IMG/VR virus record: IMGVR_UViG_3300024261_000009
Coordinates: 1 to 64,000 of that record
Length of the DNA stretch: 64,000 nucleotides
Reading direction: 5' to 3' (one strand)
Origin: a virus
Positions 1 to 59,800 of the stretch are shown here, in pieces. How positions within the stretch are numbered: position 1 is the stretch's first letter; each line of letters begins with the position of its first letter. The notes beneath the pieces are model-generated. The model worked only from the letters and a program-made list of their open reading frames with translations, was not told the origin of the DNA and searched no databases. The position numbers and the translations under genes are program-made.

Positions 1-330
1 ATGGACCTACTCGCTTACAGAGCGCCGCCTCCAAGACTACCAATGAGGGGCGCAGCCGTCTCAAAGCCGAGCCCCCTAAAGGCTCAAGTTAAAGAGCCCC
101 CTGCCACAGGAAATACTGTTCCCGCTAGTCCCACACAATCAGCTCCAGCTAGTCCCACACAACCGGCTACCGTGGTACCCCAAACAGCGCCTAGTTTTGG
201 AGCTCGATTCGGAGTTCCCTTGGCTGCAGGCGGCCTAGCCGCAGGAGCAGGCGGAGCAGGATATATGTATGGTACTCGGAACCAAGACCAACCCCTTAGG
301 AACGTAGTGCGACACTACACGGGGTACTAA
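1..330 (+). CDS. Pro-rich protein with C-terminal glycine-zipper segment (possibly N-truncated at window edge); putative virion protein
   Basis: ORF begins at base 1; PASPTQ repeat; hydrophobic GxxxG tail (LAAGGLAAGAGGAGYMYG). Confidence 0.5.
   Translation: MDLLAYRAPPPRLPMRGAAVSKPSPLKAQVKEPPATGNTVPASPTQSAPASPTQPATVVPQTAPSFGARFGVPLAAGGLAAGAGGAGYMYGTRNQDQPLRNVVRHYTGY
124..162 (+). repeat. 15-nt direct repeat GCTAGTCCCACACAA, 24-nt period (PASPTQSA/PASPTQPA)
   Basis: Identical copies at 124-138 and 148-162. Confidence 0.9.
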
Positions 331-337
331 TACGCGC

Positions 338-574
338 GTGGAGATCCTAATTTTTAGCCTTATAGGCTCGTTAATAGGCGTCTTGTGGGCACTTAGAGAA
401 GTCACCCGAAGAGTAGCTCGCTTAGAGGACACCTGCGCGGAGTTTCGCAAAGAGTGTGAGAAGCTGCAGACAAACAGCACGAGTAATACTCACAGTATCT
501 ACGCAATTCAGAATATGTCCTATCAACAGATAAGCCCCCGCTCTTACGGAACCCTGCCGCCTAACTGCTCCTAA
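338..574 (+). CDS. Small membrane-anchored coiled-coil protein
   Basis: GTG start; N-terminal hydrophobic helix (ILIFSLIGSLIGVLWAL) followed by heptad-like segment. Confidence 0.55.
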   Translation: MEILIFSLIGSLIGVLWALREVTRRVARLEDTCAEFRKECEKLQTNSTSNTHSIYAIQNMSYQQISPRSYGTLPPNCS

Positions 575-605
575 TAATTGACCAATTTTTGATAGTCAAT
601 AATTA
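572..605. promoter_or_regulatory. Imperfect AT-rich inverted repeat (operator-like), each arm containing TTGAC
   Basis: TAATAATTGAC (572-582) and GTCAATAATTA (595-605), 10/11 match, 12-nt spacer, intergenic. Confidence 0.35.
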
Positions 606-693
606 AAAAAAGACCTGAGCGCGCACTAACGCTGCCGATTAAAGGCCCCACGACCTACCTTTACCTTGGTAACACAACTATAAGGCGCAGATT

Positions 694-2097
694 GTGACCC
701 AGAACGGAAAAATAAAAGATGAGGATTCTTTAAGGGCGTTGGACCTGTACCTGGAGTACGGAAGCATGTCCGAGGTCGCACGAATTATGGGACTGTCCGG
801 GTACCACCGAGCTAAAACTCGGGTCCTAAAAGGCGCTGCTCTGCGAGGGGTAGAAATCCCTAGGGGCAAGGTGTCCGTTAAGCCTGCCCCCGACCGATCT
901 CGGTTGCGGGACCTAAAAAATAGAGAAGGCAAGTTCACAGACACCGTAACTGGAGATCTCTCTAGAGAAGTTTCCACCGTTAGCCGAAGAGTGCTTAATT
1001 TGGACGACCTTCTACTTAGCGCTGGGGTTGATAAGGGTGAGTGGAAAGTAGAGTCCTGGTCCGCTAACAAATGGGAAACCTTCTCCAAAACCGAGGGCGT
1101 AGTAGAGCTCTGGCAGATAAAAGCTAGCTTGATAAAGACGCCCGACTGGATAGTTAACCCAGTAGTCACAAGCCCTCCTATAAAGAGAAAAAGCAGAAGC
1201 AAAGCCTCAACCAAGACTTCTGGAATCGAGACTGTCTTGGTAATACCCGACAGCCAGAACGGATACACTTACGATCCAAAGACGCAGTACTATGACCCTT
1301 TGCATGACCGAAGGGCCTGGGATGTTTCTATCCAAATAGCCAAAGACATGAATCCTGACAAGGTAGTCCTACTGGGAGACATGCTTGATTTAGCCCCGTT
1401 CTCCAGGTTCCCAACAGGTCCGAACCTCAGACACACAACCCAGCCCTCGCTTCTCGAGTTGCACTGGTGGCTCTCACAGTTGAGAAAAGCTTGTCCTTCC
1501 CAGCCTGTAAAATTCCTCGAGGGAAATCATGAATCCCGCATATATAGGGCTATTATAGACCAGTTCGCGGGAGAGTTTGCTACCTTAACGCCTGCAGATG
1601 ATCCTGACGGGCACAGTCTTCTAAGTATTGAACGCCTACTTGGGTTGGACTCGCTGGACATAGACTATATTTCCCCCTACGGCAAAGCCTGGTGGTTATG
1701 GAATAAGGTTATGTTTCATCACGGAACCACCGTCAGGAGCAACTCCGGAGGCACGGTGGCTGCCGTGTTGAAAGACGCTAACCACCACCAGGTCTTTGGA
1801 CATATTCACAGAACGGAACTAGCTTCTAAGAGACTTCACGGCCCTAATGACACTTCTAGGGTTATATATGCCATGACTCCCGGAAGCTTGTGCCGGACAG
1901 ACGGAGTTGTACCCTCGGCTTCACCCCGCTTAAACTGGCAGCAGGGGTTGGGTGTCGTCCAGTTGGACGAGGCTACCGGGACAGTTCACATGAACGTTAT
2001 ACACATAGAGGACGGCGTAGCTCTATACGGAGGTAAGAGGTACGAGGGACGTGAGCGGCGGGAAGAGATAGCCGAGGGCACAGGGTGGCCTTTCTAA
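694..2097 (+). CDS. Calcineurin-like metallophosphoesterase with N-terminal HTH-like region
   Basis: Motifs VIPDSQ, LGDMLD, EGNHE, FHHG, GHIH; N-terminal SMSEVARIMGLS helix-turn-helix-like. Confidence 0.85.
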   Translation: MTQNGKIKDEDSLRALDLYLEYGSMSEVARIMGLSGYHRAKTRVLKGAALRGVEIPRGKVSVKPAPDRSRLRDLKNREGKFTDTVTGDLSREVSTVSRRVLNLDDLLLSAGVDKGEWKVESWSANKWETFSKTEGVVELWQIKASLIKTPDWIVNPVVTSPPIKRKSRSKASTKTSGIETVLVIPDSQNGYTYDPKTQYYDPLHDRRAWDVSIQIAKDMNPDKVVLLGDMLDLAPFSRFPTGPNLRHTTQPSLLELHWWLSQLRKACPSQPVKFLEGNHESRIYRAIIDQFAGEFATLTPADDPDGHSLLSIERLLGLDSLDIDYISPYGKAWWLWNKVMFHHGTTVRSNSGGTVAAVLKDANHHQVFGHIHRTELASKRLHGPNDTSRVIYAMTPGSLCRTDGVVPSASPRLNWQQGLGVVQLDEATGTVHMNVIHIEDGVALYGGKRYEGRERREEIAEGTGWPF

Positions 2098-2754
2098 TTA
2101 TACAGCGAGCAGTTCCCTTAGGGCACGCCTAGCCCTGTGTATGCGAGACTTCACAGCGGCCGGGGATAGGCCCATTCGTTCGCCTAGACTAGCTAGGTCT
2201 GTGCCTTCCATTATCTGACTCCACAGAGGAAACCTGTACCCCTCAGGAAGTTCTTCGATACCTGCGAGGGCTTTCCTTAGCGACTCCCTACCCATAAGCT
2301 GGTCTTCTAGAAGGTAGCTATTTTCAGTAATGCCAATAACGTCGTCTATAGACTGCTCCCCAAGCAGCTTAAGCTCTTTTGCCTCCCTACGCCTCCTAGA
2401 CCTAAGGTGCATTCTTATGGTGTTAGTTCCTATTACGTAGAACCAGGAGCTGAATTTACAGTCTCCTCGAAAACCGCCAATCTTATTAAAGGCTTTTATG
2501 CATGCTTCCTGAACGACATCATCCGCTCCGTTCAAGCCGACAGCTTTTACAGCACGCCACTTAAGCTTGGGTATCAGGGGTTTGATTAGTTTTTCGAAAG
2601 CCCTATGGTCTCCAATTTGAGCCAATTCTAGCAGGGGAGGTTCCACTTCTATCTCCTTAAGGTCCACATAATTAATGTGGTCCCTAAAAGAGTCGGCATC
2701 CATAGGTGGGGCACAGTTACCTACATCTTCGTACATTGGGGTCTTGGCTAACAT
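2098..2754 (-). CDS. ECF (group 4) sigma-70 family factor
   Basis: Region 2 DDVVQEACIKAF...KFSSWFYVIGTN; region 4 LGLSPAAVKSRIHRARRAL-type HTH (MGLSPAAVKSRIHRARR); GAGG SD upstream. Confidence 0.9.
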   Translation of the reverse strand: MLAKTPMYEDVGNCAPPMDADSFRDHINYVDLKEIEVEPPLLELAQIGDHRAFEKLIKPLIPKLKWRAVKAVGLNGADDVVQEACIKAFNKIGGFRGDCKFSSWFYVIGTNTIRMHLRSRRRREAKELKLLGEQSIDDVIGITENSYLLEDQLMGRESLRKALAGIEELPEGYRFPLWSQIMEGTDLASLGERMGLSPAAVKSRIHRARRALRELLAV

Positions 2755-3555
2755 TTTTCCTCGGGGTTAGGCCCTTCGTTAAGGACACCTAGGTACTTAA
2801 CACTAATTCAATACCGAGAACCTAAAAAGACAACACGAAGTTGTTATAGTTGTTAGCAGACAGCAGAGTTCCTCGGAGTTCGTTTCCAAAGTTCTCTCCG
2901 AGAGAACGAGGAAAAGAATCCGGGAGCTTCTGCAGGCTCGAACAAACTAATAAATGGCTTAGAACCATTAAAACGTCCTACCAAAGAAACGTATCGTTTC
3001 CTACATAGGGCAGCTGTTGTCTTAGTCTTGGTGGGCTCTTAAGTCCCGATCTCTGGGACTTAAGATTTTAAGTTAGTAGAAGCCTGAAAATATCAGGCAC
3101 CAAAAATGACTAGAGATCTGTCTATTTGGATTTTTAAGACTCACGTATTTACGTTCGAAGTTCTACTGCAGAGTTCCGGGACTGAATTTCTTCCTTTCAA
3201 AGAATCTAATTTTGGAACCCAACATAACGTAAAAGGGTGGCGGAAGCCGCTCGTGGCGACCAGGCCGACCCCGGTTAGCACCGGGGAAACACTAAGAAGA
3301 CGTATCGTCTCCGATCCCAGAAGGATCTTAGTGCTGAGTCTAGAACCTCCATAATCACGAACGCGACTATCGGTGGGTTGTTGGATAAAAAACTAAAGAG
3401 AGGTACTATGCGAGAGGTAGACAGGACTTAATAAATTGTACGCGCGTACTAAGCCCCCTAACGACTGCAGGGAGGACATTTTTTAGGTTTACCCTAGAGA
3501 GATCTCACAAGGCGGCCAACCTGATAAGAAATCTCTAGCATCAGACTGTTGTCTA
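2755..3555. ncRNA. Candidate large structured non-coding RNA or structured DNA element (about 800 nt)
   Basis: No convincing ORF; many stems, e.g. 2891-2907, 2953-2969, 2986-3000, 3037-3065 (11 bp perfect), 3082-3098, 3237-3250 (GGAA tetraloop), 3269-3286, 3290-3333; long-range pairing 2920-2943 with 3153-3179. Confidence 0.5.
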
Positions 3556-3633
3556 TTGCATACTCTTATACCTGCAAATAAGCTAAATTTGCGCATTTAT
3601 GGTCACAACTACAGAAACCTTAAGGAGACTCCA

Positions 3634-4302
3634 ATGCCTCGAAAGTTATCGGATATCGGAAGTAACGGGGGCAGTATGGACCTTGGTTCCGAACTAACCT
3701 CTGACGCTAGTATTACCCCAGAAATAACTCCCAGGGATACTCAAAACCTACGGGGGGAAGTCGAGTCTGATCCCGATGTTTCTCCAGGATCCGAGTCCCC
3801 CGAGGCTTCTGGGACTGCAGAGGAAAACCTGAAAGAGTACCTGGACACGCCGAGGTCCCTGTGGCTAGAAGAGTTAGGGACGCTAAAAGTAACCCCGGAG
3901 GAAGCAGCAAACATCTTTGACGTGGTTATGTCTACCGGCAAGTACCTAGAGACTTACCGGGTTGGGAAAACCGTGGTTAAGATTAGAACACGGACCACAG
4001 TAGACGCTGATCGAACGATAGAAATACTTCAAGAGCAGCGCCCTGAGTCTGCCGCGGTGTACTCACACCTAGTTTCCAGGGTCAACCTTGCTTCGAGTTT
4101 GGTAGAGTACGGAGAAAGTAAATTTCCGCACACCGCCCCCTCGGAGGATAATCGGGAGAGGCTCGACTCGGAGTGGAGGGAGCGTTACCGCTTTTGCGCT
4201 GCTTTACCCGCCCCCGCGTTTTACGCCCTGAGTCAGATCTTACAAAAGTTTGACGAGAAGGTCTCTCTATCTTGTGACGCCAGGAGTCTGGAAAATTTTT
4301 AG
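3634..4302 (+). CDS. Tail assembly chaperone (gpG-like)
   Basis: AGGAG SD before ATG 3634 (track start 3556 probably too early); lies upstream of the tape-measure-like gene; ends on a slippery heptamer. Confidence 0.65.
   Translation: MPRKLSDIGSNGGSMDLGSELTSDASITPEITPRDTQNLRGEVESDPDVSPGSESPEASGTAEENLKEYLDTPRSLWLEELGTLKVTPEEAANIFDVVMSTGKYLETYRVGKTVVKIRTRTTVDADRTIEILQEQRPESAAVYSHLVSRVNLASSLVEYGESKFPHTAPSEDNRERLDSEWRERYRFCAALPAPAFYALSQILQKFDEKVSLSCDARSLENF
4293..4299 (+). promoter_or_regulatory. Programmed -1 ribosomal frameshift heptamer A AAT TTT
   Basis: X XXY YYZ heptamer directly before TAG 4300-4302; -1 frame is open from 4299 into ORF 4386-4640; downstream stem GGGGAA 4312-4317 / TTCCCC 4348-4353. 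Confidence 0.8.
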
Positions 4303-4640
4303 AGACCTCTTGGGGAAGTGCTCGAGCGGAGCTCATCCTAGAAGGAGTTCCCCTCCCCCCAAGGGGTAGTGCTAAGAGCGCAGTTATGGAGGAGATGGTA
4401 AATAGAAGAAGAGTACGCGCTTGGAGGGCTCAGGAGATGGCACTTTTGGCTCAGGCGTACACTTCTACAAGAAATGAAAAACTTTTTGAGCGTTTAGGCA
4501 GTCAGGCGACTAAAATTATGTCAATGGTCCTCCACTTGCCGGGGGCCTATGAGCCTGAGCAGCTTCCAGAGCCTGAGACAGCGTCTCCCTCGGATGTAGA
4601 ACTCTTGGCTCTATTGGACAAGAACTTGCCGGATCTTTAG
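4299..4640 (+). CDS. Frameshift extension of tail assembly chaperone (gpGT-like; includes track ORF 4386-4640)
   Basis: -1 frame reads LETSWGSARAELILEGVPLPPRGSAKSAV then MEEMVNRRR without a stop. Confidence 0.7.
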   Translation, partial: LETSWGSARAELILEGVPLPPRGSAKSAVMEEMVNRRRVRAWRAQEMALLAQAYTSTRNEKLFERLGSQATKIMSMVLHLPGAYEPEQLPEPETASPSDVELLALLDKNLPDL

Positions 4641-4650
4641 GGGACCCTAA

Positions 4651-7600
4651 ATGGCTGATAATACTTTCTCTAGCATAGCCCAGGGATACTCTGGTGCCCA
4701 GGATGCCCTCAGAGGTCTGGGAATGCTCCCAGGGTCCTTTCGCCCTATGGACGGGGGAGGAGCCTCACTACAGGTTCCCACCATAGCGCCCATGCATACA
4801 CAACCCATGTTTATGCCGCGCCCTCCCATGAGCAGCACACTGCCCTTTCCTTCCCAGTCCCCCCAATTTGCCCCTCAGTCGGGTCCCGGGATCCCTGCTC
4901 CCATGCACCCGAGTATGATGTCGCCTCGCATGAGTGCCTTTGCACCTCAGCAAGGGACTTACCTCCCTCCGGTACCCGCGGCTCCTACCGCTATGGGGAC
5001 CCTTGAGGCTCGAAGAATCCTAATGGGGCAGCAGACTATAGGCACCAACCAGAACGTACTTAAGACTCGGGCCCAGGCAGCGGCCACGTACGGAGCCTTT
5101 TCAGACTCTCTGTCCGTAATACCAGGAGCCCTGGGCGCTGGGTTTGCAGGATCCAAACTGGGTGGAGCCGTGGGCGCTATGGCAGGCGGTGTCGGTGCCC
5201 CCGTAGGAGCCGCCCTTGGTGGTATTGCTGCTAGTATGGGGTACGCGGCGTTTCATAACTACGCGGATGACTACGCCCGGGAGCGGGAACAACACGCCGC
5301 TATGGGAGGGTATAGCCTCCGAGGAGTGACCTCAGGCAATATGGTGGGTGCCTTCGGAACCGGAATTAGTCCGATGAAGCAGATGCAACTTTCGAAGCAA
5401 ATGATTTCTCAGGCTAAGCAGTCTGGGTTTCACGAGACCTTAAAGGGAGGAGACTTCTCTACTACCCTAGGCATGGCTTCTGAGATGGGTCTTATGCGAG
5501 GCCACACAAACGATGTGGGCCAGACAGTTTCCCGTGTTAAAAATTTGGCTACCGTGGCTAGAGACATAATGCGCCTAGGAGAGGGGATTACCCAGCAGGA
5601 TGCCATGGAACTACAAGCGCTTACCCAAGGTTTGGGGGTTAGTACGGGCACTTTCCAAACCCACAACCTGGGGCAGAAATTGGTTACTGCCGCTAAGGTA
5701 GCGGGCGTATCCCCAGGTCAAGCAACTCAACAAGGCTTTGTGGCTGGGGCCCAGGCTTTTCAGCAGGCCGGGATGTCCTCTGTTCTTGGGGGACTTACAG
5801 GGTTAAGCACTCTTACTCAAGCAGGGTCAATAGCTAATTCTGGTAATCTAACCGCAAGCCAACTAGCCGCTCTCGGCGGGCAGAGAGGACTTCACCGAAG
5901 CCTTCTCGGAGCACATACCGGTTTTCTATCAAATAATATGGGATCTATGGCGTTGGGGTCTATAGATACGGATGGGAACCTTGACCTAGATTCTTTTCAG
6001 TCCAACCTGTTGGGGTCCGGAGGCTCTGTAAGAAGTATGAACCTTCGGGGTCGAAAAGCCCTGCGTGGGGACGACCTAACTTCGGGACAGATTGGGTTGA
6101 GAAAGCAGCTCCTCTTAGAAAAAATGCCAGATATGACGCGAAAGATGCAGGAGGAGATGACTCCTATGCAAACTAACGCGCTCATGGTTAGGCAGGTTAC
6201 CTCTAGGATGGAGGAGGCGATGAGCACGGGCCGATTTGTCACTGACACCCAGGCAGCGGCTAGTCTGGGCGTAGCTCCCGAGCAGTGGAGCGCCGTTAAG
6301 TCTTCAATGAGTAATATAGATTCTCAGGTAAGGGACATAAACCGTCAGGAGAGGCTGGTTAGCCGAGAGAAGCGTGCCCGGGGTGCAGCTGAGTATGATG
6401 ACATGACTCGGAAAACAGTGTGGCAGGAGTACGCCCCAGACTGGGCCCAGTCAGCGGCCTCCTCGACAGGAGAGTTCTTCTCTGATTTGACTACGGTCTC
6501 CGAATGGGACAACGATGTGGGAAGGATGGTCCGGCGCAGGACTAAGGAAAGAGCTGTCAGGTCTTCTTTAATTGAAGCGAATGCAGCAGGAAGTCGCCTA
6601 GGCCAGGAGAAAGCCAACACATCTTCTGTACGCTTTAACGAGGGTCAGAGAAAGCTGCTGAATGAGGAAGGTACTCAAGAGTTTCTCGATTCCTTAGGGG
6701 GGCTGGGAAATCTAGGTAAGGACGTCCGTACCAGTACCGCCTCTAGAGGGGGATTCAGAATGACTGCTCCAGAGTTGGGGCGTTTAGCGTCTGGTCAGGA
6801 GGAGACGTTTGGAGACGATTTCCAGGCAAGTGAAACCCTACAAAGAAACTTTAACTTCTTAGACCCCCAGGGCGGTGACGGTCTCGCTAAGTTTGCAATG
6901 ACGGCTAGTGAAGAGCGAGATTATATTTACGATAGTGCTAAACGCAACCTTAATTCGGCGGGTTCCCTCAAGTACTACTCCGAGACAGTAGGGGGCTCGA
7001 CCAACCGGTCTTATATAGGGGATGTTGACTTTTCCAGGACGGGCAGAGGCTTGGATAGTGCAAACCTGAGTGATAAAGAGCGAAGTCGTGTCGCCGCTCT
7101 TATAAAGAGCACTGTTAGGTCTACGGCTGGTAAGCAGTTTGATTTAGCCTTTAACGACGGGAAAGACCCTAGTCTTAAGGAGCTTACCAACATGAACCTC
7201 AAGGTAGGGCAAGATGTTGATGCCATTCTCAAGAGAGAGAATATCACTCTGACCGCAGAGGACCGAGAGAACCTTAGATCCAGAACAAGTGAACTCGCAG
7301 AGAGAAGCGCGGCCCAAAAAATGGGAGAAACAGAAAAAAGCCGAAAGTTCGGAGCTAAATACATATCCTCCGTCGAGGGCGTTATTAATGAACTAAGTAA
7401 TGAGGACTTTGCCTTTAATGACGGGTTCAAGAATGCCGACTCGGGCGCTGCGGGAATAAACACCTTCCTTAATAATGCTCGCCCCTCCGCGCAATCGAGG
7501 CCGGATGGCGGTATCTTCGAAGAGCTAATTCCGGGGCCTTGGGCGACGGAGGCGCTGCGGGAATACGGCCGTGATCTGCAGGTCCCGCACGACTTGGAAG

Positions 7601-8544: not shown

Positions 8545-8742
8545 ATGAAAAAGCCACCCACTATTACCATTCCCAGTGGAAGAAATTATCTAGAATACAT
8601 CTTGTCAGGGCTGATATCCAGCTTTAAGAAGGGGCGAAAGGTCGCTACTGTCGATGTGGTCAATATACATGCGAGAGCAGACTCCATGGACCGTCAGAAT
8701 GTTGTCTTAATACGTTCCGAGGAGGACCCCGATGCCCAGTAA
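8545..8742 (+). CDS. Small hypothetical protein, tail module
   Basis: AAGGA SD, ATG start, overlaps next gene. Confidence 0.55.
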   Translation: MKKPPTITIPSGRNYLEYILSGLISSFKKGRKVATVDVVNIHARADSMDRQNVVLIRSEEDPDAQ

Positions 8743-15416: not shown

Positions 15417-17165
15417 GTGGCTAATATTGATATAGACATAGAAGAAGTCAAAAAAGCAGAGCTCCTAATCCAGTCTTTTCTTATGGATAAGCTGCCCGAG
15501 GCAAACTTCCGGGAAGGGACTCATCTCCACGATATAGTTGTTCGAGCGTTCGCCGCTGTATACGCACTTATAAAGTCGGAAGTAACTGAGGTTAGGTCAC
15601 GGCAATCTCTTCTCAAACTAGAGTCTCTATCTGACATAGCTTCGGATGAGGTGGTTGACGAAATTGCGTCGAACTGGTTTTTAACCAGGAAGACCGGTTC
15701 AAACGCTATGGGCACACTAACGGTCCACGTATCCGCAACGATAACTCAGGGGGTTTCCGTCGTAGTCCCCGAGAGTGCGGAGTTCATTTACACCAACGGA
15801 ATCTCTTATTTTCTTAATTCTGAACAGGACATGGTTTTCTCTAGGCAGGATATGACCCCAGTGTATACTGGAGGCGAGGAACCCTCCAGCTACCATTTCT
15901 TAATACCTGTTATAGCAGAGCTCCCGGGAGTCGCCGGGGAGTCCGCTTCCGGGGTATTCGAGTCATTTTCCTCCTTTGGAGATGGGCTGATAACCTCTGT
16001 TGAAGCAACAAGTGCCTTGACAGTATCGAGTGCGGATGAAACTAACGCGGAGCTAATTGCGCGAGCAAAAACGGCTGTAACTTCTAGGGGAACGGTTAGT
16101 GCTCGCGCTATTGACACCGTTCTTAGGGACGAGGTTCCTGACGTTCAGGAGGTAGTCGTAGTTGGGTCCGGAGATACGGAGATGTACCGGGACTATATAA
16201 CGGATGTCTCATCGGGCTTTTCGATACATGTTTTAGGACATGTAAATGTGTACGCTCACCTGCCCTTGGCACCAATAGCTATATACCCTCAAGCAAGCTC
16301 TATAGTACTATCGGGACTAACCTCTTTGGTGGTAGACGCCTCAAAAGTGTCTGATTTTCCTTTTATGAGGCTGAGGTCTGTTAGGAGCACTCACACCGAT
16401 GACCTAGGGGTTGAGGTAGTCTCTACTCTCGAGAGGGTGTCTTTCTTTAGTTACACGGATGCCTCCACGAACCAGGTTGTCTACAAGAAAGTAACGGGAG
16501 ACCTGAGTTCAACCTACGAGGATTACACGTTGGTGGCTGACCAAACGGAACCTGTTTTGGTAGAGGGTGAGTATTCAGTATCTTACACCGAACCCCTAAC
16601 GGCCTTTACCGCCGAAGAAGGGTTCCGTATAAACGTTCCCTCCTTGGGTTTCGATAGAATGCTTAGAATTGAGTACCAGGGTTTGTCCGGCCTGTCCTCG
16701 GCGGATTCCGTTCTCCAGGATCGGCAGAGAAGAACCGTTTCAAGCAACGTTAGGTCCTATGGGTTTTACCCCCTCACAGTTTCTATGCACATTAAGTACT
16801 ATGCATCGCCGGACGCTCTTGGAGATTTCCCGGTGGCTCTTGCGGTCTCAAGTCTAGCTACTTTCGTAAACACTTTCCCTCGAGAGAGAGCCTTAAGGGT
16901 AGGGGATATTATCCAGCATTTTCTTACAACGTTTTCCTCGTATGTTAACGGAGTAGGTCTTCCTACGGAGGTTAGGTACCACTTAGAGGGACCCGACGGT
17001 AAAGTTTCCGCCTTCAAGACCAACGACGTAATCTCTGTTACGAACCCTGCCCTTCTCGTCTCTCCGAACACGTACCCCTCAACAACTAGGATACCTCAAC
17101 AGGTCAGTGACAGGACTGTACGCCCTATTACTTTCGAGAACCTAGTTACCTTCGAGGAGATTTAG
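15417..17165 (+). CDS. Baseplate J-like (gp6-like) wedge protein
   Basis: SNWFLTRKTGSNAMGTLTV, IAELPGVAG, ADETNAELIARAK and VVVGSGD motifs typical of baseplate J. Confidence 0.8.
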   Translation: MANIDIDIEEVKKAELLIQSFLMDKLPEANFREGTHLHDIVVRAFAAVYALIKSEVTEVRSRQSLLKLESLSDIASDEVVDEIASNWFLTRKTGSNAMGTLTVHVSATITQGVSVVVPESAEFIYTNGISYFLNSEQDMVFSRQDMTPVYTGGEEPSSYHFLIPVIAELPGVAGESASGVFESFSSFGDGLITSVEATSALTVSSADETNAELIARAKTAVTSRGTVSARAIDTVLRDEVPDVQEVVVVGSGDTEMYRDYITDVSSGFSIHVLGHVNVYAHLPLAPIAIYPQASSIVLSGLTSLVVDASKVSDFPFMRLRSVRSTHTDDLGVEVVSTLERVSFFSYTDASTNQVVYKKVTGDLSSTYEDYTLVADQTEPVLVEGEYSVSYTEPLTAFTAEEGFRINVPSLGFDRMLRIEYQGLSGLSSADSVLQDRQRRTVSSNVRSYGFYPLTVSMHIKYYASPDALGDFPVALAVSSLATFVNTFPRERALRVGDIIQHFLTTFSSYVNGVGLPTEVRYHLEGPDGKVSAFKTNDVISVTNPALLVSPNTYPSTTRIPQQVSDRTVRPITFENLVTFEEI

Positions 17166-29508: not shown

Positions 29509-30836
29509 CAGTTTTTCTCCTCATCCCACGAGGTGGGTCTCCGTAACAACGACCAAAGATCCTGGTACTCTGGTACGTGAAGATCCGCTAAGCTTTTAAA
29601 CTCAAGCCCACGCCAGTTGGTAAGCCTAACCGACAGAGTCTTAGAACCGAGCACATCTATCGATGAAAAGTCTTCTTCCCAAGACCCGTAAAACATCTTA
29701 TTACGCGTGTATTTCCCACTACCTAGCACCCAAGCAAGAATAAGAGACTGCTCCTTAGTCAGGGGGATCTTGTCTCTTTTTAACCGGTGCTCTAGGTGAG
29801 GGTGCTCCTCAATGAATCTCTTTAGGGTGAAGGTCTGCTCTCTGTACGCCCCCCAAGAGCGTACAGTCTTCACCAGGTATTCTCCCTTGCGCTCACTGGG
29901 CGTAACTCGGACAACAGAGCCCTTGTGACCCCTAGGCCCGAGCGCAGAAAGGGTGGCGTCACATCCTATGAGCTGAATCGCGGCATGTATTCCTGGGTTC
30001 TTGTACGTGGGGATAACCTTCCATCGATTTAATACGGAAGCTTTCACAAAGGACTCCAATTCCTGCGGAGAAACCCCTCCTGAGCAACGCTGTCTCCGCC
30101 ACTTGCTGGAAGAATCCTCGCAGTAGCTACGGCCGTAAGAAGCCTCCGACAGAACACAGTTACGGCACTCGCGGTTCCCGAAAGCTCTGCTCTTGCCTGC
30201 GCTTACATTCCGGGCCTTCACTCTCGAGTAGGCTTTTTTTATCGACTGCTCCTTTAAGTCGATAAGCGTAATGCACGGGTACTCCTCACAGAACAGATCG
30301 TCAGTAGCTATAGACGACTTGACTAGGGTCATCCCGGCATGTTTTCCCAGAGAAGAGTCCCAGTCTTCAGTCCCCAAGTTGTTTCCGGTGACGCCCCAAG
30401 TGGTAGTATTAAGAAGCATTTCTGAGATGTCTAGTACTGACTTAGGGATGTTGTCTTGCAAACAGGTTTCCTGGACGTCGCAGGAAGTGCAGCCTTTGTC
30501 CGAAAACTTCAACATACTGGTACAGTTGTCCGTGAACTTTTTTAATTCGTATACATCTCCCATAGACACAACCGAGTAGAGTATCTCTGAGAGTTCCTTA
30601 ATAGACTCCTGTCGGGGCATAACGTCGGTCACTAAGCCGTTGTAGTATACCGCTAGTGGTTTCCCCAAGAAGATACTTAGTTTCTTGGCCGCTTCCACGG
30701 ACTTGTCTAGGGTCTCTCCTCCGTCAGCGTAAACTCCTGAAAGGGTAACCCTCTTTAAAGCGGGTCTGCCGTCCCAACCAACCCCGCTCCAGATGTGTAC
30801 CACTGAGGAAGCCTTAGTTATATTAAGAGTTGTCAT
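29505..30836 (-). CDS. Hypothetical Cys-rich protein coupled to the RT
   Basis: 443 aa; CTSCDVQETC and CRNC...YC...RC clusters; start overlaps RT stop by 14 nt. Confidence 0.7.
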   Translation of the reverse strand: MTTLNITKASSVVHIWSGVGWDGRPALKRVTLSGVYADGGETLDKSVEAAKKLSIFLGKPLAVYYNGLVTDVMPRQESIKELSEILYSVVSMGDVYELKKFTDNCTSMLKFSDKGCTSCDVQETCLQDNIPKSVLDISEMLLNTTTWGVTGNNLGTEDWDSSLGKHAGMTLVKSSIATDDLFCEEYPCITLIDLKEQSIKKAYSRVKARNVSAGKSRAFGNRECRNCVLSEASYGRSYCEDSSSKWRRQRCSGGVSPQELESFVKASVLNRWKVIPTYKNPGIHAAIQLIGCDATLSALGPRGHKGSVVRVTPSERKGEYLVKTVRSWGAYREQTFTLKRFIEEHPHLEHRLKRDKIPLTKEQSLILAWVLGSGKYTRNKMFYGSWEEDFSSIDVLGSKTLSVRLTNWRGLEFKSLADLHVPEYQDLWSLLRRPTSWDEEKNW

Positions 30837-31923
30837 ACTTGTCCTCCTCTTCCCAGAGTCGTGTTTTTCTAGTATCTTCCTTATCCAGAGCGCGCTTAAA
30901 ACTTGCCTGAAGGCACTCGTTCCTTGCCGGAGCTAGGACTTGACCAACGTAGCTAAGTTTGCCTCTTAGGTGGGATATTAGGGCTTCTGTGGTGGTTATC
31001 TTAAAGTTTACCTTTTCTCCGGCTCTCTTGACCTGAGACTCGAAACCGTACTTCTCGCAGTTATTAAGGATGGCCCGGAGGTCTTTGTACTTTTCACGCC
31101 TTATATTGGCGTGTTCGTTAACTACTAGACCTAGAACTTCCTGCCTCCGCCATTTAGGCGCTACACGAATCTTGTGTACCCGCCACCCGGTTTTTTTAAT
31201 AATACTGATTACCGATTCTTTAAAACGGTCAACTTCTGTCCTTGGAAGAACTTGTGGGTGGGTCAGGTAGATATTATCGGAGTACCGTATATACTCCCAC
31301 CCCAACGACCGCGCGATTCGTAGTACTTCCTGGTCAAAGAAAAGGTCAGCCACCCGATTCGCGACCGTAGGGGATATGGGCGTGCCCTGGGGCATAAACC
31401 GTCTTCCCCTGGAGTCGGTACAACAGCACAGTTGTGCCATAAGGCTGGAAACCTGTCGGTTGTAGCCTACTGTTGTAAACATCTTCCTTACCTGGCTCAG
31501 TTTTATGGACCCGAAGAAATTCTTTAGGTCCATAGTTAGCAGTATACCCGCCCCCGCACATTTCCGAGCGGCATCGGCGGTACGCCGCCCCTTCTCGTAC
31601 GCCGCCACGTGGTCCCCAACAGGGATTTTCTTCACAAAGTTCCTGTCTAAGGACCGCTGCACCGCTTTGAGTCTCTCGTCCGGAACATGAATGGGTCGCC
31701 TCTTACCCGCCCGCCCAGACTTTCCCCGTTTGGCCACGCTATGCTCTTCATACATAGAACCGCTATGCCCCGCAGGTACTTGGGATCCTCTAATTAGCCA
31801 CCACAGCGTTTTATTTCGTATCCCCAGATTTAGGGCTAGAGTGAAGTCATCTATCGCTGTGGGAAGGCCCTCGTTAGGTCTAGTTAGACCAATCTCTTCT
31901 ATAACAGTGCTTTTGTAAGCCAT
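30823..31923 (-). CDS. Retron-type reverse transcriptase with non-canonical YSDN motif
   Basis: RPIHVPDERLKAVQ, MDLKNFFGSI, MPQGTPISPTVAN, YIRYSDN (31273-31284 for YSDN), RQEVLGLVVN (VTG-like), LRAILNNC; GAGGAG SD. Confidence 0.9.
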   Translation of the reverse strand: MAYKSTVIEEIGLTRPNEGLPTAIDDFTLALNLGIRNKTLWWLIRGSQVPAGHSGSMYEEHSVAKRGKSGRAGKRRPIHVPDERLKAVQRSLDRNFVKKIPVGDHVAAYEKGRRTADAARKCAGAGILLTMDLKNFFGSIKLSQVRKMFTTVGYNRQVSSLMAQLCCCTDSRGRRFMPQGTPISPTVANRVADLFFDQEVLRIARSLGWEYIRYSDNIYLTHPQVLPRTEVDRFKESVISIIKKTGWRVHKIRVAPKWRRQEVLGLVVNEHANIRREKYKDLRAILNNCEKYGFESQVKRAGEKVNFKITTTEALISHLRGKLSYVGQVLAPARNECLQASFKRALDKEDTRKTRLWEEEDKYDNS

Positions 31924-31950: not shown

Positions 31951-32733
31951 TTACGCCCCTGTGTGCCAACTAACAAGCCTCCCAGCTTCCTTGATGGTTT
32001 CCTCAGGGTACATTTGTGTAGGCGCGTTGAAGGACATCTCAGAGAGACATACGTCTCCCCCCAGCTGGCAGTCTCCGTGCATATGTTCTAATAATCTAGG
32101 ACAAGCCCTGCAGGGCGGAGTGATGATATCATCAAGTATCTTTAACTCTGCGCTGTCGGGTACTATGGGAGCGCCTTTAAGAATCGCTTTGTGGGGCCAA
32201 TCTATATCCCTCGCCCTGGAACCTCCGTTTTCTTTAGCACCTCCCCAGGTCCACTTCTCATTTGCTAGGTATGAGGGCCTAGAGTGGTTAGATCCCCCCT
32301 TGCTAGATAGGTTCAATATGGGGATAAGAAGTCTCCAGTCCTCAGCGGTCCCGTCGTCTAAGGCCTGGCATAAAGCCTGTATCTCTGGAGATCCGCCCTC
32401 CAAGTGTGGGAGTATTGACCTCCCCACCCCCGTGCGGGATCTTCCAGCCGAACCTCGTTTTTCTCGCCTTTTGTATTCGTTCTCGTTGGTAAGGATAATG
32501 AAACCGGGAAGCTTTTTGGACGGACCTCTTCGACCCGCCTCTCTTGATACGGTTTCGTCAATGTGGAGCTTCTCCAGAAGGCTTCTAACAACCCCCTTAA
32601 TAGGCAACACGAGGTTTATAGGGGTTAGGCTTTGAGCCCTGATTGTCGCCTCCTTGCGGAAAATATACACCCTGTCGAAGGGAAACTTTCGTCCGGCAGC
32701 ATACCGCTTTATCTTTAGGCATATTATACTCAT
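31951..32733 (-). CDS. Hypothetical basic protein with C-terminal Cys cluster, directly upstream of the RT
   Basis: 260 aa; PPCRACPRLLEHMHGDCQLGGDVC; 4-nt overlap with the VWA gene. Confidence 0.7.
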   Translation of the reverse strand: MSIICLKIKRYAAGRKFPFDRVYIFRKEATIRAQSLTPINLVLPIKGVVRSLLEKLHIDETVSREAGRRGPSKKLPGFIILTNENEYKRREKRGSAGRSRTGVGRSILPHLEGGSPEIQALCQALDDGTAEDWRLLIPILNLSSKGGSNHSRPSYLANEKWTWGGAKENGGSRARDIDWPHKAILKGAPIVPDSAELKILDDIITPPCRACPRLLEHMHGDCQLGGDVCLSEMSFNAPTQMYPEETIKEAGRLVSWHTGA

Positions 32734-34151
32734 GTGTTTATCCTAACGACCCTCCCGTAGGAGCAGTCTTCGTCTTTTCTCCGAGAGCTCCAAGCGGACC
32801 CTGGAACGGAACCCGAAGGAGTAACTACCCACACCACAGGGCACGGAGCTCTATTCTCTCTTCGGGGGAGAGGGCACTCACCGTCGGTTCCGTAAATTAT
32901 AATGTCGGGTTTTAAGTCTTTAGCTCTTACGAAGACTTCGTTAAAGTCGGTTCCTCCACGCCCACTAAGAAGTGTTTGAGGAGTAGACCCAGGCTTCAAA
33001 GTATATTCCTTATGTATTCTAGTGTCCGCCTCTATCACCGTGATACTCATACACTCAGAGGCTTTTTGAACCCCCTGTATCTCGCTAAGACAGAGAAGCA
33101 TTTCCTCAACGCTCATGCTAGCGCTGGTATCGATGGCAAACAGTACATCAAACTTAGGACTCGTTTTTGTCCCTGGATAAGGGGACGCTTTCCCTCCAGA
33201 CTCTAGGAGTCTCCTCTTAGGCCGGGACATGCTTCTAACAGTACGAGTTTTCTTAGAATTAGTTATTAGTCTTCTAAGTAGATGATTCCAGGGGATAGTC
33301 GGGGGTCTAAGAAGGTCTTCAACAAGCTCCTGCACGTTCCCACTTAGCTTACCCCTGCCTTTTGTTGCTGCCTGAGCATTCTTGACAGTTTTCTTTATTT
33401 TCCTTTCTGATCTATCCGCAGCACCCTCTATCTCCGTAGTGGTCATTTTGGATAGTTCGGATTCAAGATCCGCGTGTGCGTTCAGGGGCGCTCCCTCCTT
33501 GTGGTACTCCTCTAGGATATCTGCCAGTTGGTCGGGAGTTAGGGTCACTTTTTGAGGCGGCGGTCCTTCCCCACCCTCTCTGTCCTCCGGACTAACCACG
33601 ATGCAATCCCCGAGGTCGGTTGTAGAGGCTCCCTCGCTCTGGTTCATCTGAGGCAAGTTGTGAACATTTTCTATTAGTTTGGCCGCGTACCATTCGTAGG
33701 ACTTGCCAAGGGGCAGCCCTGCGTCGGAGGGCAGTATGCCAGGCAACTTCCCAGGTCCCTCCTGACGAAATTGCGCCTCGGTACACTCCCTAGTGCTAAT
33801 TAGGAGGGAGTTTACCGCGTAGTCAGCAGCCACATTGCTGACCTTCATCAGTAGTTTTTTCCGGTGTTCCGGAGCCCCTGCGTAGAGTCTCATGGCTCGG
33901 GGGATGTGGTTTAGGACAAGATGTAAAACCTCATGGGTTATGATAAGAACCAGAGTATCAAAGTTAAGTTCTCGTATCAGTTTGGGGTTGTACATGAGTA
34001 CGTTAGCCCCTTCTTTGATTGTCACCGCCATGGTGCCTACGTCTGGGTCCTCTAGTTTAACCAAGCTATTAATAACCGTGGGGTAGAAAGTGTGTGTCTT
34101 TCCCCTCCCTGTAAGTAAATAGGCTAGAATCTGATCTAGACTAGCTTTCAT
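32730..34151 (-). CDS. VWA domain protein with N-terminal HExxH putative metallopeptidase (DUF2201-like)
   Basis: THEVLHLVLNH; MIDAS-like AIDTSASMS; GRGGTDF; IYGTDG; AGGAGG SD. Confidence 0.85.
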   Translation of the reverse strand: MKASLDQILAYLLTGRGKTHTFYPTVINSLVKLEDPDVGTMAVTIKEGANVLMYNPKLIRELNFDTLVLIITHEVLHLVLNHIPRAMRLYAGAPEHRKKLLMKVSNVAADYAVNSLLISTRECTEAQFRQEGPGKLPGILPSDAGLPLGKSYEWYAAKLIENVHNLPQMNQSEGASTTDLGDCIVVSPEDREGGEGPPPQKVTLTPDQLADILEEYHKEGAPLNAHADLESELSKMTTTEIEGAADRSERKIKKTVKNAQAATKGRGKLSGNVQELVEDLLRPPTIPWNHLLRRLITNSKKTRTVRSMSRPKRRLLESGGKASPYPGTKTSPKFDVLFAIDTSASMSVEEMLLCLSEIQGVQKASECMSITVIEADTRIHKEYTLKPGSTPQTLLSGRGGTDFNEVFVRAKDLKPDIIIYGTDGECPLPRRENRAPCPVVWVVTPSGSVPGSAWSSRRKDEDCSYGRVVRINT

Positions 34152-40584: not shown

Positions 40585-40634
40585 TACGAATTTTGTTGGA
40601 TCAGAGAACTCGAGCTCGGATCTAACCTATATTC

Positions 40635-40761
40635 GGGGCCCGGACGAGGCGAAGCCGAAGTCGCCTTACGGGCCCCAGTACTACTAAGGGAAAGTTACTT
40701 TCCCGGTATGGGAGTTAAAGCTATTAAGCACTTACTTATACCATAATAACGTATGTTATTA
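40635..40761. terminator. Cluster of three hairpins between convergent terL and polA (terminator or processing region)
   Basis: GGGGCCCG/CGGGCCCC plus AGGCGA/TCGCCT (40635-40676); GGGAAAG/CTTTCCC (40688-40704); TAATAAC/GTTATTA (40744-40761); no clear U-tract. Confidence 0.45.
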
Positions 40762-40767
40762 CGGTCT

Positions 40768-48261: not shown

Positions 48262-49002
48262 TTGTCTACCGTAAAGGTTCTTGGAAGATCCGAAGAGATA
48301 TCCATGTTCCGTAGGTACAGGTCTTCTAGGGATCCTAAACTTAGGAGACTTCTTGTGGAGAGCTGCTTAAAGCTTGTCTTCTCCTTAGCCCGTAAGTACT
48401 GGCTAGACAGGGATCCTGAGTCTCTTCAGGCGTTAATATCCGCAGGAAACGTAGGGCTCATGGAGGCGGTTGACAAATTTGATCCTGACAGAGGAGCTAG
48501 GTTTGCTAGCTATGCTTCCTTCTGGATACTCATGCACGTTAGAACAGAGCTTACGACCCTGCACGACGTTGTTATTCCTTCTTCAAAGGCAAGAAAACTT
48601 CGCATGAGGGCGTCTTCAACAAGGAAAGAGATGGGGATAGAGGAAAGTCCTAGTCCTAGCTCAATGTACTCAAAGCTGGAAGATGTACCTGAGGCTCTGT
48701 CACGATCTACTTGTTCCGACCAAACCACAACTAGTAGTTACGTGCCCGGGCATTCTATACCCGGCGCAGACGTAACCAAGTTGTTTTCCCGTTGGTTTAG
48801 GTTCCTAACTGTCCGGGAACAGTTTGTACTCCGAGCCTACTACGGCCTTCTCGGAGAAGGAGAGGGTTTAAAGCTACGACAAATATCCTCACATTTAGGA
48901 CTCTCGAGTGAGCGGGTTAGGCAAATTAAGGCCTCTGCGCTAACTAAACTTCGCAGGTGGTTTTCCTACGATGGTGTGGATTGTCCTAGTGACGTCATTT
49001 AG
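48262..49002 (+). CDS. Sigma-70 family factor (group 2/3-like, regions 2 and 4)
   Basis: LISAGNVGLMEAVDKFDPDRGARFASYASFWI; LRQISSHLGLSSERVRQIKASALTKLR. Confidence 0.9.
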   Translation: MSTVKVLGRSEEISMFRRYRSSRDPKLRRLLVESCLKLVFSLARKYWLDRDPESLQALISAGNVGLMEAVDKFDPDRGARFASYASFWILMHVRTELTTLHDVVIPSSKARKLRMRASSTRKEMGIEESPSPSSMYSKLEDVPEALSRSTCSDQTTTSSYVPGHSIPGADVTKLFSRWFRFLTVREQFVLRAYYGLLGEGEGLKLRQISSHLGLSSERVRQIKASALTKLRRWFSYDGVDCPSDVI

Positions 49003-53984: not shown

Positions 53985-54078
53985 ATCGGTAAACCTCCTC
54001 TATAGTTATCGGGAATACAGTGTGTACCAGTCATATACTTATGCCAGCAAAAACGCTTTTATTTAAGGAGGTTTTACC

Positions 54079-56624: not shown

Positions 56625-56817
56625 CAGGCCTTCTTCACAGCTTTTCGGAGCGCCCTGCTCCGCAAGAATTCTCGCCAGATAATTATATAAATACACTATT
56701 TTTTGCCTTTCTTTATTGTGGTTAGTGCTATTTGCATGAACACTACATGTGCCTTGCATATACTTGTGACACAATTAGGGGCGGTATTTTTGCTCCGATG
56801 CCCGCTTGGAGACCCTG

Positions 56818-59800
56818 ATGAAAGATTTAACCCCCGTTGTAATGAACCCCTACGACCGTAGGGATAAAATCAGAACCTCCGCCATCCAAGGAGTGGAAAG
56901 CCTATTTCCAATTCTAGGAGACCATAGAGATCTAGAGGTAAACAACCTTCGGGTAGATAAGAAAGACTACTCCGCTTCAGATATAAAGGACGCTGTTTTA
57001 TCTGGGAGAACTCTTGGGGAGCAACTGAAAGCGGACGTGACTATCCGGGATAAAAACGGGCAGGTTATAGACGTAAAAAAGAACCACTCTCTAATGAGAG
57101 TACCCTACTTCACCCCGCAGAACACTTTCGTGGTCAAGGGAAACGAGTACGTAGTTAGACACCAGCTGAGGACTATGCCTGGGGTATACACTCGAAAAAG
57201 AGGGAATGGTGAACTTGAGGCTAGCTTTAACTTAGCTAAGGGCTCCAATTTTCGTCTTAGTATGGACCCGGAAAAAGGTCACATGAACATGGAGTACGGA
57301 TCTTCGAAAATACCCTTGTATCCGGTACTTAGAGGCATGGGAATGACTCACACGGATATATCAAAGCAGTGGGGTTCTGGTGTAGCCAACCAAAACCAGG
57401 ATGCGTTTGACCCTAAGAGGGACAAACACGTAGACCGGCTGTATAAGAAACTGGTACCGCAGAGGAAGGTGGACTCTTCCCTAAATACAGGGGAAAAGGT
57501 TTCTGTTATACTGGATAAGTATTCCAACACACTCTTAGATAAAGAGACTACTAAGAAAACTTTGGGGGAAGCCCACACTAGCGTCACTCCCAGGAGCTTA
57601 CTCGCGGCAAGCAAAAAATTACTGCGAGTATACAAGGGGGAGGCGACCTCGGACGAGAGAGACAGCCTCGAGTACCAGACTCTCCACTCCCCTGAAGATT
57701 TCATCAGGGAACGCTTAGAGCATTCGGGCAGAAATATGCGGTGGAAGTTGAAATCAAAGCTAGACTTAACGTCTAAGCCGGAAATTAGTAAGGTTCTGCC
57801 CTCGTCTACGTTCACAAAGCCTGTGGACTCCTTCATAACCACCTCTCAGATAACCACCTCCCCGACTCAGATAAACCCCATTGCGTTAATTAACGATGCC
57901 AGCAGCATTACCCGATTCGGGGAAGGGGGTATCGGAAGTGAGAGAGCTATCCCCGCGGACGTCCGAACTTTACACGCGTCCCACCTGGGAGCTTTGGACC
58001 CCTTCGGCACTCCAGAGAGCAGCAAATCCGGAGTAGATGTTCGGGCGGCTCAGCATTTATATAAGGATGATAGGGGGCGTCTTCACACCATACTCAAAAA
58101 CGTCAGGACTTCTAAGAACCAGTTTGTTCCCGTGTCGGAAATACCTAGGTCCACTGTGGCGTTTTCTAACCAGAACACCCTTTCGGGTAGTGTGGACGTA
58201 CTGCACAAGGGCAAGGTAACCAAGGTGTCCCCGGGTAAGGTTGATTACCAGGTACCCCACTCCTCGGTTCTATACGGAGTATCGACTAATCTTATACCTT
58301 TCCTAGATTCTACTCAGGGGAACCGGGCAATAATGGCCTCAAAACACGTAGCCCAGGCTGTGCCTCTGATCGGACGAGAAGCGCCTTTAATCCAGGTCGG
58401 GGCCCCCGAAAACAGTGGGTACTCCTCGATAGAGGAACTGGTGGCTAAAACTATCGTCTTGCCCACATCTCCGGTGTCGGGAAGGGTTACGCGCGTAGAC
58501 GATGATTTCATCCATATAAGAGATTCAAAAGGATCTCCCCACAAGGTTGTCCGATTCAAAGACTATCCCCTTGCGTCAAAGACGCATATAAACGAAACAC
58601 CTGTGGTCCGCAGGGGTGATAAAGTAAAGAAGGGCCAGGTTCTTTCTGACAATAACTACACGGTAGACGGGGTCCTAGCCCTGGGCAAAAACCTAAACGT
58701 GGGCTACATGGCCTACAGAGGTTTAAACTCAAATGACGCAGTGGTTATCTCAGATGCAGCCGCGGATAAGCTTACCTCGGAGCATATGGTCAAACGAGTC
58801 CTAGTGCTGGATAACGACCTCTCCCTAGGGGACAAGAAGCACGCGGCAAACTTCGCTTCGAGGTTTACTCGGGATCAGTATAGTAACTTGAAATCCGGCG
58901 TTGTTACTCCAGGAACCGTCTTGAGAAGTGGGGACCCTATAGCAACCGCAGTTAGAAAAGCCCCTCCTAGCGTTGAAAATGAAATGTTTGGTAGGATACA
59001 TAAGTCCTTGAGAAGAGAGTACGTGGACGACAGTCTCGTCTGGGAGGATCCCGAAGACGGAGAGGTTGTTGATGTAAAACAAACGGGCAACAGGTTAGCA
59101 GTAACTATAAAGTCCAAAAAAAGGATGAAGGTTGGTGATAAACTAACGAATCGGTACGGGGCTAAGGGCGTAGTATCTAAAATAATTCCCGATGCAGAGA
59201 TGATCCAGGATGCTTCGGGGAGCCCTATTGACCTACTATGGTCTTCCTCGGGTGTCATAAGTCGAATAAATCCAGGCCAGATTGTGGAGACCGCTGCCGC
59301 TAAGGTGGCTAAGAAGCAGGGCAAACCAATCGTTGTCCAAAACTTTTCCAACAGAGATAACGTTCAGTGGGCCAAAAAGTTACTAAAGGATAATGGCCTA
59401 ACCGACAAGGAAGAGGTTACCGATCCAATCACGGGAAAGAAGATACCAAATATCATGGTGGGTCCTCAGTATGTCTATAAGGGCTTTAAGTCTACGGATA
59501 CTAATTTCTCTGCTCGAGGGGCGGGAGGGTCGTACGACATTAACCAGCAGCCTGGGAGAGGAGGCATCTCTGGTGCCAAGGGGATGGGCAGGATGGAAAT
59601 TAACGGACTGCTTGCACACAACGCACGAGACATCCTAAGGGAAAATGCGGTTATAAAGGGCACCAGAAACACTGAGTACTGGAATGCGGTTAGACTCGGG
59701 CTACCCATCCCTTCTGCGACGGCTCCTTTCGCGCACAATAAGTTTGTTTCTATGCTTACCGGAGCCGGTATGCGAATGAATCGAGAGGGAAACCAGGTCA

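Follow-up and report, generated by a model that had tools for sequence, protein, structure and literature searches.

What occupies the roughly 880 bases (2755-3633) that separate a leftward sigma-factor gene from a rightward 222-aa gene near the beginning of this phage genome? The initial annotation proposed a large non-coding RNA of about 800 nt, with a reverse transcriptase template or a cruciform-rich origin as alternatives. The analysed window, 64 kb long, is the first part of a 117-kb linear virus record with a completeness estimate of 73%. The phage is uncultured and marine, with relatives from TARA and other ocean assemblies, and it belongs to an ocean phage group without cultured representative; the best match of its terminase among deposited phages is only ~31% identical and comes from distant phages. 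The same phage is carried by a 137.8-kb metagenome contig in which the gap-bearing region lies mid-contig, and thus the gap is not a genome end. The genes relevant to the analysis are the following (all positions are those of the window or of the longer record):

2098-2754, minus strand: sigma-factor gene (Pfam Sigma70_r2 and r4_2; PHROG RNA polymerase sigma factor)
3634-4302, plus strand: 222-aa gene, function unassigned, first of the rightward tail/baseplate block, with 24 homologues
15417-17165: baseplate wedge subunit gene, downstream of the 222-aa gene
30823-31923, minus strand: reverse transcriptase gene (RVT_1, 56 bits)
48262-49002, plus strand: second sigma-70-family gene
56806-61167, plus strand: RNA polymerase beta-like protein of 1453 aa (PHROG matches to the beta subunit)

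The 222-aa gene starts at the ATG at 3634, with AAGGAG ahead of it. The phage thereby brings along some transcription machinery of its own. Most genes for replication and regulation are on the minus strand (sigma factor, helicases, DNA polymerase, primase, and exonuclease), and virion genes on the plus strand (tail, baseplate, portal, and terminase). A DUF2201 metallopeptidase/VWA-like gene (32730-34151, minus strand) is found near the reverse transcriptase gene.

The presence of a long non-coding gap was borne out, this being the longest ORF-poor stretch of the 117-kb contig. The stems described at 2891-2907, 2953-2969, 3037-3065 (11 bp, perfect), 3082-3098, 3237-3250, 3269-3286, and 3290-3333, as well as the palindrome at 3438-3449, were all found at these positions. 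The GC content of the gap is 0.47-0.48, compared to ~0.50 for the genome. On both strands, the folding energy of the whole gap is below that of dinucleotide shuffles (z of −3.4 on the plus strand and −5.2 on the minus strand, 20 shuffles per strand). A 150-nt sliding scan over positions 1-7100, with the flanking genes as control, showed two islands, 2801-3150 (z from −3 to −7) and 3201-3400 (z from −2 to −3.7), while 3101-3250 and 3301-3650 fold like coding DNA and no more. Dense folding over 800 nt, as originally described, is thus an overstatement, because the excess is local and confined to the two islands; folding below shuffles is the part that stands. Within a metallophosphoesterase gene, the 150-nt stretch 1651-1800 is also below shuffles on both strands (z of −3.1 and −4.5).

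Rfam 15 at gathering thresholds gave no match anywhere in the 64-kb window, and a search of 2600-3800 with E up to 10 returned chance matches only (14-20 bits, against cut-offs of 39-195); no family, including GOLLD and ROOL, was matched, and the tRNA/tmRNA scan found none. A large RNA of the GOLLD/ROOL class was discarded on the Rfam result and on the conservation of only ~85 nt across lineages. Of the large non-coding RNA, the structured RNA is supported, since the gap holds a conserved, covarying, non-coding structured element; its size is reduced to ~85 nt across lineages and to ~330 nt with the closest relative. The gap is not the template of the reverse transcriptase, since it has no second copy in the 117-kb genome, where it matches only itself; the reverse transcriptase gene is 27 kb away. 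The template repeat of a diversity-generating retroelement needs a near-identical variable repeat and a neighbouring reverse transcriptase, and the gap has neither. The idea of a cruciform-rich origin received no positive support: the gap has no iterons, is not AT-rich, and contains only weak two-copy direct repeats, and the GC skew tracks gene orientation, its turns coinciding with gene-strand blocks. An 82-aa ORF called on identical contigs (3106-3354) was rejected as a gene: its frame is not kept in relatives, and it has no Pfam or PHROG match. The closest relative has one-base indels inside the conserved core. No match to the gap (DNA search) or to the 222-aa protein (protein search) was found in the phage record collection, and the scan of viral contigs with the sigma-factor protein found no relative.

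We compared the genomic contexts of 24 homologues of the 222-aa protein. Members of the subclade whose proteins start with MPRKLS have a gap of 500-1400 nt ahead of the gene; more distant lineages have ~100-200 nt of intergenic space, and there a small minus-strand zinc-ribbon ORF starts as little as ~13 nt from the plus-strand gene. A small zinc-ribbon ORF (69-81 aa, minus strand) also lies inside the gap of most members of the MPRKLS subclade. In the window and in locus L006 it is missing, and the sigma gene is in the leftward position; no homologue of this ORF was found in the 117 kb of this phage, and the zinc-ribbon protein matches no Pfam family. Family-wide, the divergent neighbour of the 222-aa gene is a small acidic zinc-ribbon-like protein with the pattern C-x-H ... 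C-x2-C. The zinc-ribbon ORFs of the relatives are:

L009, 4223-4459, minus strand
L012, 2660-2869, minus strand
L015, 948-1190, minus strand
L118, 845-1090, minus strand

L006 is the closest relative, with a 222-aa protein 73% identical to that of the window and a DNA identity of 73% over 3271-3593. In the left 515 nt (2755-3270), only a 24-nt block (2820-2842) and the 12-nt AGCTGTTGTCTT are shared; the layout nevertheless persists there, since the hairpins of the two phages occupy corresponding positions and the global alignment scores 6 sd above shuffles. The features that emerge from this comparison, on the two sides of the three-hairpin motif described below, are:

2820-2842, minus strand: 24-nt block, 96% identical to L006 amid unalignable DNA, 66-88 nt before the sigma start
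2850-2945: long imperfect hairpin of ~95 nt, with GTTCTCT/AGAGAAC (2891-2907) at its centre (self inverted match, MFE, local z from −4 to −5); in L006 a long hairpin of different sequence occupies this position
3037-3065: 11-bp hairpin followed by TTTTAAG on the plus strand, terminator-like on that strand only; in L006 an unrelated GC hairpin of 8 bp takes its place
3350-3558, minus strand: remainder of the putative leftward RNA, right of the motif, with blocks conserved with L006 at 3350-3385, 3428-3454, and the two hairpins listed next
3494-3538, minus strand: long hairpin right of the motif (consensus fold)
3543-3554, minus strand: hairpin AGAC-TGTT-GTCT, right of the motif (consensus fold)

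The block at 2820-2842, which includes TGTTGTCT on the minus strand (2828-2835), is a candidate sigma-proximal promoter or operator. The 27 nt at 3428-3454, which contain the palindrome GTACGCGCGTAC, are 100% identical to L006, compared to no more than 73% identity for the flanking proteins. Two parts of the gap can be aligned with all other lineages: an 85-nt core (3265-3349) and a box containing CTTATAsC, which ends 17-62 nt ahead of the start codon in the lineages compared.

The core corresponds to a three-hairpin motif, whose parts are given in plus-strand spelling:

3265-3349, minus strand: three-hairpin motif of ~85 nt (covariance models R1/R2, 71-77 bits)
3271-3284: hairpin A
3291-3293: ACT box
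3296-3312: hairpin B
3313-3327: hairpin C
3334-3338: CTGAG box

In the consensus (plus spelling), hairpin A consists of CCGG, a 6-nt loop T-N-N-R-C-A, and CCGG; an 11-nt linker containing ACT leads to hairpin B (7 bp with a T-N-N triloop), followed by hairpin C (3-7 bp) and a CTRAG box. A multiloop-closing helix, CACTAAG/CTTAGTG, is found in the window, L006, and L009 and, being absent from some copies, was omitted from the consensus. The covariance models identified 15 distinct copies of the motif in 11 marine phage lineages (52-77 bits under R2 and 25-83 bits under R1), among which the identity of the 222-aa protein is only 49-74%. The location is constant, between the leftward regulator gene and the homologue of the 222-aa gene, and four lineages carry tandem copies 200-290 nt apart. 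No comparable match was found elsewhere in ~260 kb of loci, and the model search of ~35 more distant loci encoding the 222-aa family found no motif. Among viral contigs, the 15-mer of hairpin A occurs in 27 places, all due to chance by model score; a degenerate pattern of 18 positions was absent from viral contigs and matched 23 places in prokaryote genomes, every one due to chance and most of them in GC-rich actinobacteria.

Covariation among homologues had been suggested as a test for the gap, and compensatory changes are indeed present in the motif hairpins. In hairpin B, both sides change in 6/7 pairs, pairing is kept in 96.6% of cells (versus 33-47% with slid partners), and the covariation score was reached by 0/500 shuffles. 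At least 8 different stems occur in hairpin C. In hairpin A, the stem is constant in sequence and the loop varies, and a conserved C beside its 3' arm has no symmetric partner. There is no open frame across the motif in L015 or in the second copies of L023 and L091, and the frames differ elsewhere. Since the stems covary and no frame survives across copies, the motif, as judged from these alignments, is a structured, non-coding nucleic-acid element. The motif is new, and the gap as a whole is a composite control region.

The GNRA loop and the G-U pairs had been taken to favour the plus strand. This does not hold in the conserved part, where wobble pairing is found on the minus strand: correctly placed hairpins contain ~11 A·C on the plus strand (G·U on the minus strand) versus 1 G·U on the plus strand. 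At pair 2 of hairpin B, there are at least 4 independent G/A switches opposite a fixed C, and three paralogous B-type hairpins in the genome have one A·C each, at a differing position. The minus-strand fold is lower in 11/15 motif copies (p=0.015), and the consensus energy of the window and L006 is −65 on the minus strand versus −47 on the plus strand, both comparisons being of raw energies as to G+U content. At 96482, a B-type hairpin is embedded in an operon of the minus strand and is sense only on that strand. The z-scores of the sliding scan do not separate the strands, and the variable hairpin beside A has U·G on the plus strand and C·A on the minus strand in the window, L012, and L021. 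Taken together, we consider it quite probable that the conserved RNA is read leftward, on the minus strand.

Two further features of the minus strand flank this span:

3559-3580, minus strand: 22-nt promoter-like box, reading AGGTATAAG...TG (TGnTATAAG in most relatives)
3239-3270, minus strand: terminator-like hairpin directly after the motif, with a U-run at 3231-3234 (minus-strand fold)

On the minus strand, the box consists of a T-rich stretch, TGnTATAAG (3565-3573 here), four bases, and TG, an extended −10-like layout. It is conserved in 12 lineages, with the “n” of TGnTATAAG as the single variable position. The box occurs three times in the genome: the other two copies, at 54032-54053 and 40725-40752 (minus spelling TGGCATAAG and TGGTATAAG), lie in the 94 nt that separate a helicase gene (minus) from the divergent portal gene (plus) and in the convergent gap between DNA polymerase and terminase, respectively. 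Only the longer box is significant; CTTATACC as an exact word is not enriched (4 occurrences versus 3.6 expected). Sigma-70 promoters normally need a T at the last −10 position, and the last base of TATAAG is a G, not a T; moreover, there is no −35 element near the box, and a consensus promoter scan of the gap called no promoter. The box could also be a rightward late promoter, because the 22-mer is also located ahead of the tail block and of the portal, both late operons on the plus strand; in three lineages it is only 17-18 nt from the plus-strand ATG, which is tight for a rightward promoter.

In the window, 4 nt separate the stem of the terminator-like hairpin from the U-run. A terminator-like hairpin with U-run follows the motif on the minus strand in 6/11 lineages: those of L006 and L009 are clearer and called by the terminator scan, and those of the window, L023, L015, and L118 are seen in folds. 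L012, L090, L091, and L116 have a hairpin beside A without a U-run on the minus strand. The B-type hairpins of L009 are flagged as terminator-like on the plus strand, and several gap hairpins score as terminators on either strand. The wobble asymmetry, the terminator-like hairpins, and the TGnTATAAG-like box point to a leftward RNA of ~330 nt.

The explanation that we favour, with about even confidence, is that the gap contains a putative structured leader or attenuator of the leftward regulator gene, within a divergent control region. The non-coding status, conservation, covariation, recurrence, and position of the element are observed; the strand and the promoter are inferred, as are termination at the hairpin and the mechanism of read-through. 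The gap would control the late tail block rightward and the regulator gene leftward. A leftward early or middle transcript would start near 3558, from the −10-like hexamer at 3570-3565 (minus strand), and would traverse ~330 nt of folded RNA, the last module of which would be the three-hairpin motif (3349-3265), before reaching the terminator-like hairpin with its U-run (3270-3231). The block 73% identical between the window and L006 (3271-3593) coincides with this box-to-motif span. In the window and its closest relative, extra hairpins and a degenerate motif copy would then precede the sigma-factor gene, and in the other relatives the small zinc-ribbon gene would come directly next. The motif would work as a recognition module: a bound factor, or its own folding, could set the passage through the terminator, upon which the regulator would be expressed and the late genes switched on. 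A narrower version, which we regard as rather improbable, is that the motif, single or in tandem, would be the sensing domain of a riboswitch-like attenuator or a nut-like site for a phage factor, timing the late-gene activator (sigma factor or zinc-ribbon protein) in a clade of phages with an RNA polymerase subunit and two sigma factors of their own; with such a function, the simpler B-type hairpins would label further early transcripts for that factor.

Parts of the motif and of the gap recur in the genome, as listed:

2953-3009, minus strand: degenerate second motif copy, with an A-like hairpin AATGG/CCATT and a B-type hairpin (2985-3001) behind an ACCAAAG box
2828-2835, minus strand: TGTTGTCT
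3015-3022, 3547-3554, and 8700-8707, plus strand: TGTTGTCT

The degenerate copy, whose positions 2980-3001 match 3291-3312 at 77% identity, was also recovered by the scan for a box plus hairpin. An ACTAAG-like box with a 7-bp T-N-N-triloop hairpin occurs at 2980, 3291, 40683, 96482, and 99126; these units are 5/5 in plus spelling and 5/5 intergenic, and the five opposite-strand look-alikes are all inside ORFs. The units at 96482 and 99126 (L121:2482 and L121:5126) are B-type hairpins with an ACT..G box, located in gaps of a block of small minus-strand genes. Next to the 99126 unit is a palindromic C-like hairpin and, on the minus strand, a terminator-like hairpin and then a 295-aa minus-strand gene; the 99126 hairpin has ACG-TAT-CG in common with the main motif. 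TGTTGTCT occurs 8 times in the genome versus ~3.6 expected; three of these are in the gap and all three are kept in L006, where the one at 3015-3022 is AGCTGTTGTCTT. The copy at 8700-8707 is 25 nt before the gene at 8732. On a minus-strand RNA, the two plus-strand gap copies would be complementary to the sigma-proximal copy (9-11 bp). TGTTGTCT may serve as an operator, as part of a promoter, or for long-range pairing.

This recurrence bears on a different explanation, to which we assign a low but not negligible probability: the gap would be a set of DNA elements or transcription punctuation, a PeSL-like pile-up of promoters and terminator stem-loops without a dedicated RNA function, whose cassettes would insulate early from late units or serve as recombination sites, or whose palindromes would be operators. 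It is consistent with the five B-type hairpin and box units always lying between genes, the three promoter-like boxes in the genome, the three TGTTGTCT copies in the gap, and the several hairpins that score as terminators on either strand. Furthermore, the leftward gene is swapped here (zinc-ribbon ORF versus sigma), as at a recombination-prone cassette, and a constant stem with a varying loop, as in hairpin A, is operator-like. However, across 11 lineages the three adjacent hairpins of the motif keep their spacing and the invariant bases of loops and linkers while their stems covary freely, which simple terminators and duplex operators do not require; the C next to the 3' arm of hairpin A lacks a symmetric partner, and the wobble asymmetry indicates the single-stranded reading of one strand.

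Between the convergent DNA polymerase and terminase genes, 183 nt (40585-40767) are gene-free, with a minus-strand fold of z −3.4. Besides a long GC hairpin, they contain GGGAAAG-TTA-CTTTCCC, a B-type hairpin preceded by ACTAAG (plus spelling), and they could represent another small RNA or a bidirectional terminator. The box at 40725-40752 faces, on the minus strand, 140 nt of this folded gene-free DNA (z −3.4), with no gene behind. This would suit a free-standing small RNA of ~330 nt that ends at the terminator and acts in trans (as antisense, protein sponge, or decoy), an explanation of the gap that we consider unlikely. It accounts for the promoter-to-terminator span and for the conservation as well as the leader does, and the block at 2820-2842 could be the sigma gene's own promoter. 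Conversely, in relatives the leftward ORF starts 87-263 nt past the motif, as expected of a leader, no target complementarity was found, and the terminators are weak or absent in 4-5 lineages.

A plus-strand RNA, either a large non-coding RNA that takes up the greater part of the gap or a long leader of the tail operon, made from a more leftward promoter, is very improbable: it agrees with the hairpin at 3237-3250 (GNRA loop and U·G on the plus strand), the lower plus-strand folds at 2951-3100, the strong plus-strand hairpin after TGTTGTCT at 3015, and the plus-strand U·G in the variable hairpin of L012 and L021, but the wobble count of the conserved hairpins is ~11 to 1 for the minus strand, the DNA left of the motif in relatives is a minus-strand ORF and thus leaves no room for a plus-strand promoter there, the left 500 nt are unconserved in sequence even in the closest relative, Rfam gave no match, and a B-type copy situated in an operon would be read there in antisense.

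If the leader or attenuator explanation is true, the motif would be an undescribed RNA family with clean covariation, placed at the early/late switch of abundant ocean phages. It would also offer a concrete handle on late-gene timing in phages with their own sigma factors and polymerase subunit, namely the promoter-like box, the folded leader with its terminator, and the exchangeable regulator gene. The size first assigned to the RNA and, probably, its strand are corrected here, which is relevant to any probe or model built on them.

Among known systems, lambda nut (boxA and a boxB hairpin, with the N protein) and the put RNAs of HK022 are antitermination signals in early phage leaders, with one hairpin in nut and two in put. 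Similarly, the motif is built from short hairpins whose loops and neighbouring bases are conserved, is present in more than one copy per genome, and would lie on the sense strand of an early-type transcript, before terminator-like hairpins and ahead of the next-stage genes. It differs in having three hairpins and no sequence or Rfam similarity to nut or put, and its conserved linear boxes (CUUAGU-like and CUYAG on the minus strand) resemble no known boxA. In common with leaders of riboswitches or protein-dependent attenuators and with tandem aptamers, there is a conserved folded domain and, after it, a terminator-like hairpin of variable sequence, with tandems in four lineages; unlike these leaders, the module is simple, with three stacked hairpins and no clear junction that all copies share. 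The proposed arrangement resembles nut/put or attenuator leaders by analogy of logic, not of sequence. GOLLD and ROOL are RNAs of ~600-800 nt with complex multi-domain folds and Rfam models. The gap is likewise non-coding, structured, and phage-borne, but neither model matches and its cross-lineage conservation is limited to ~85 nt. Lastly, the PeSLs of T4-type phages are sigma-70-like promoters with terminator stem-loops that mediate gene shuffling (PMC2839356), and the gap shares with them recurrent intergenic stem-loops, host-type promoter-like boxes on the early strand, and a spot of gene exchange. PeSLs are single GGGG/CCCC stem-loops fused to a full −35/−10 promoter directly before an ORF (PMC2839356), whereas here 40-250 nt lie between the module and a box without −35, and the five intergenic B-type hairpins and three promoter-like boxes are adjacent at two sites only. 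Unlike PeSLs, the module described here is composite and conserved far beyond one genome.
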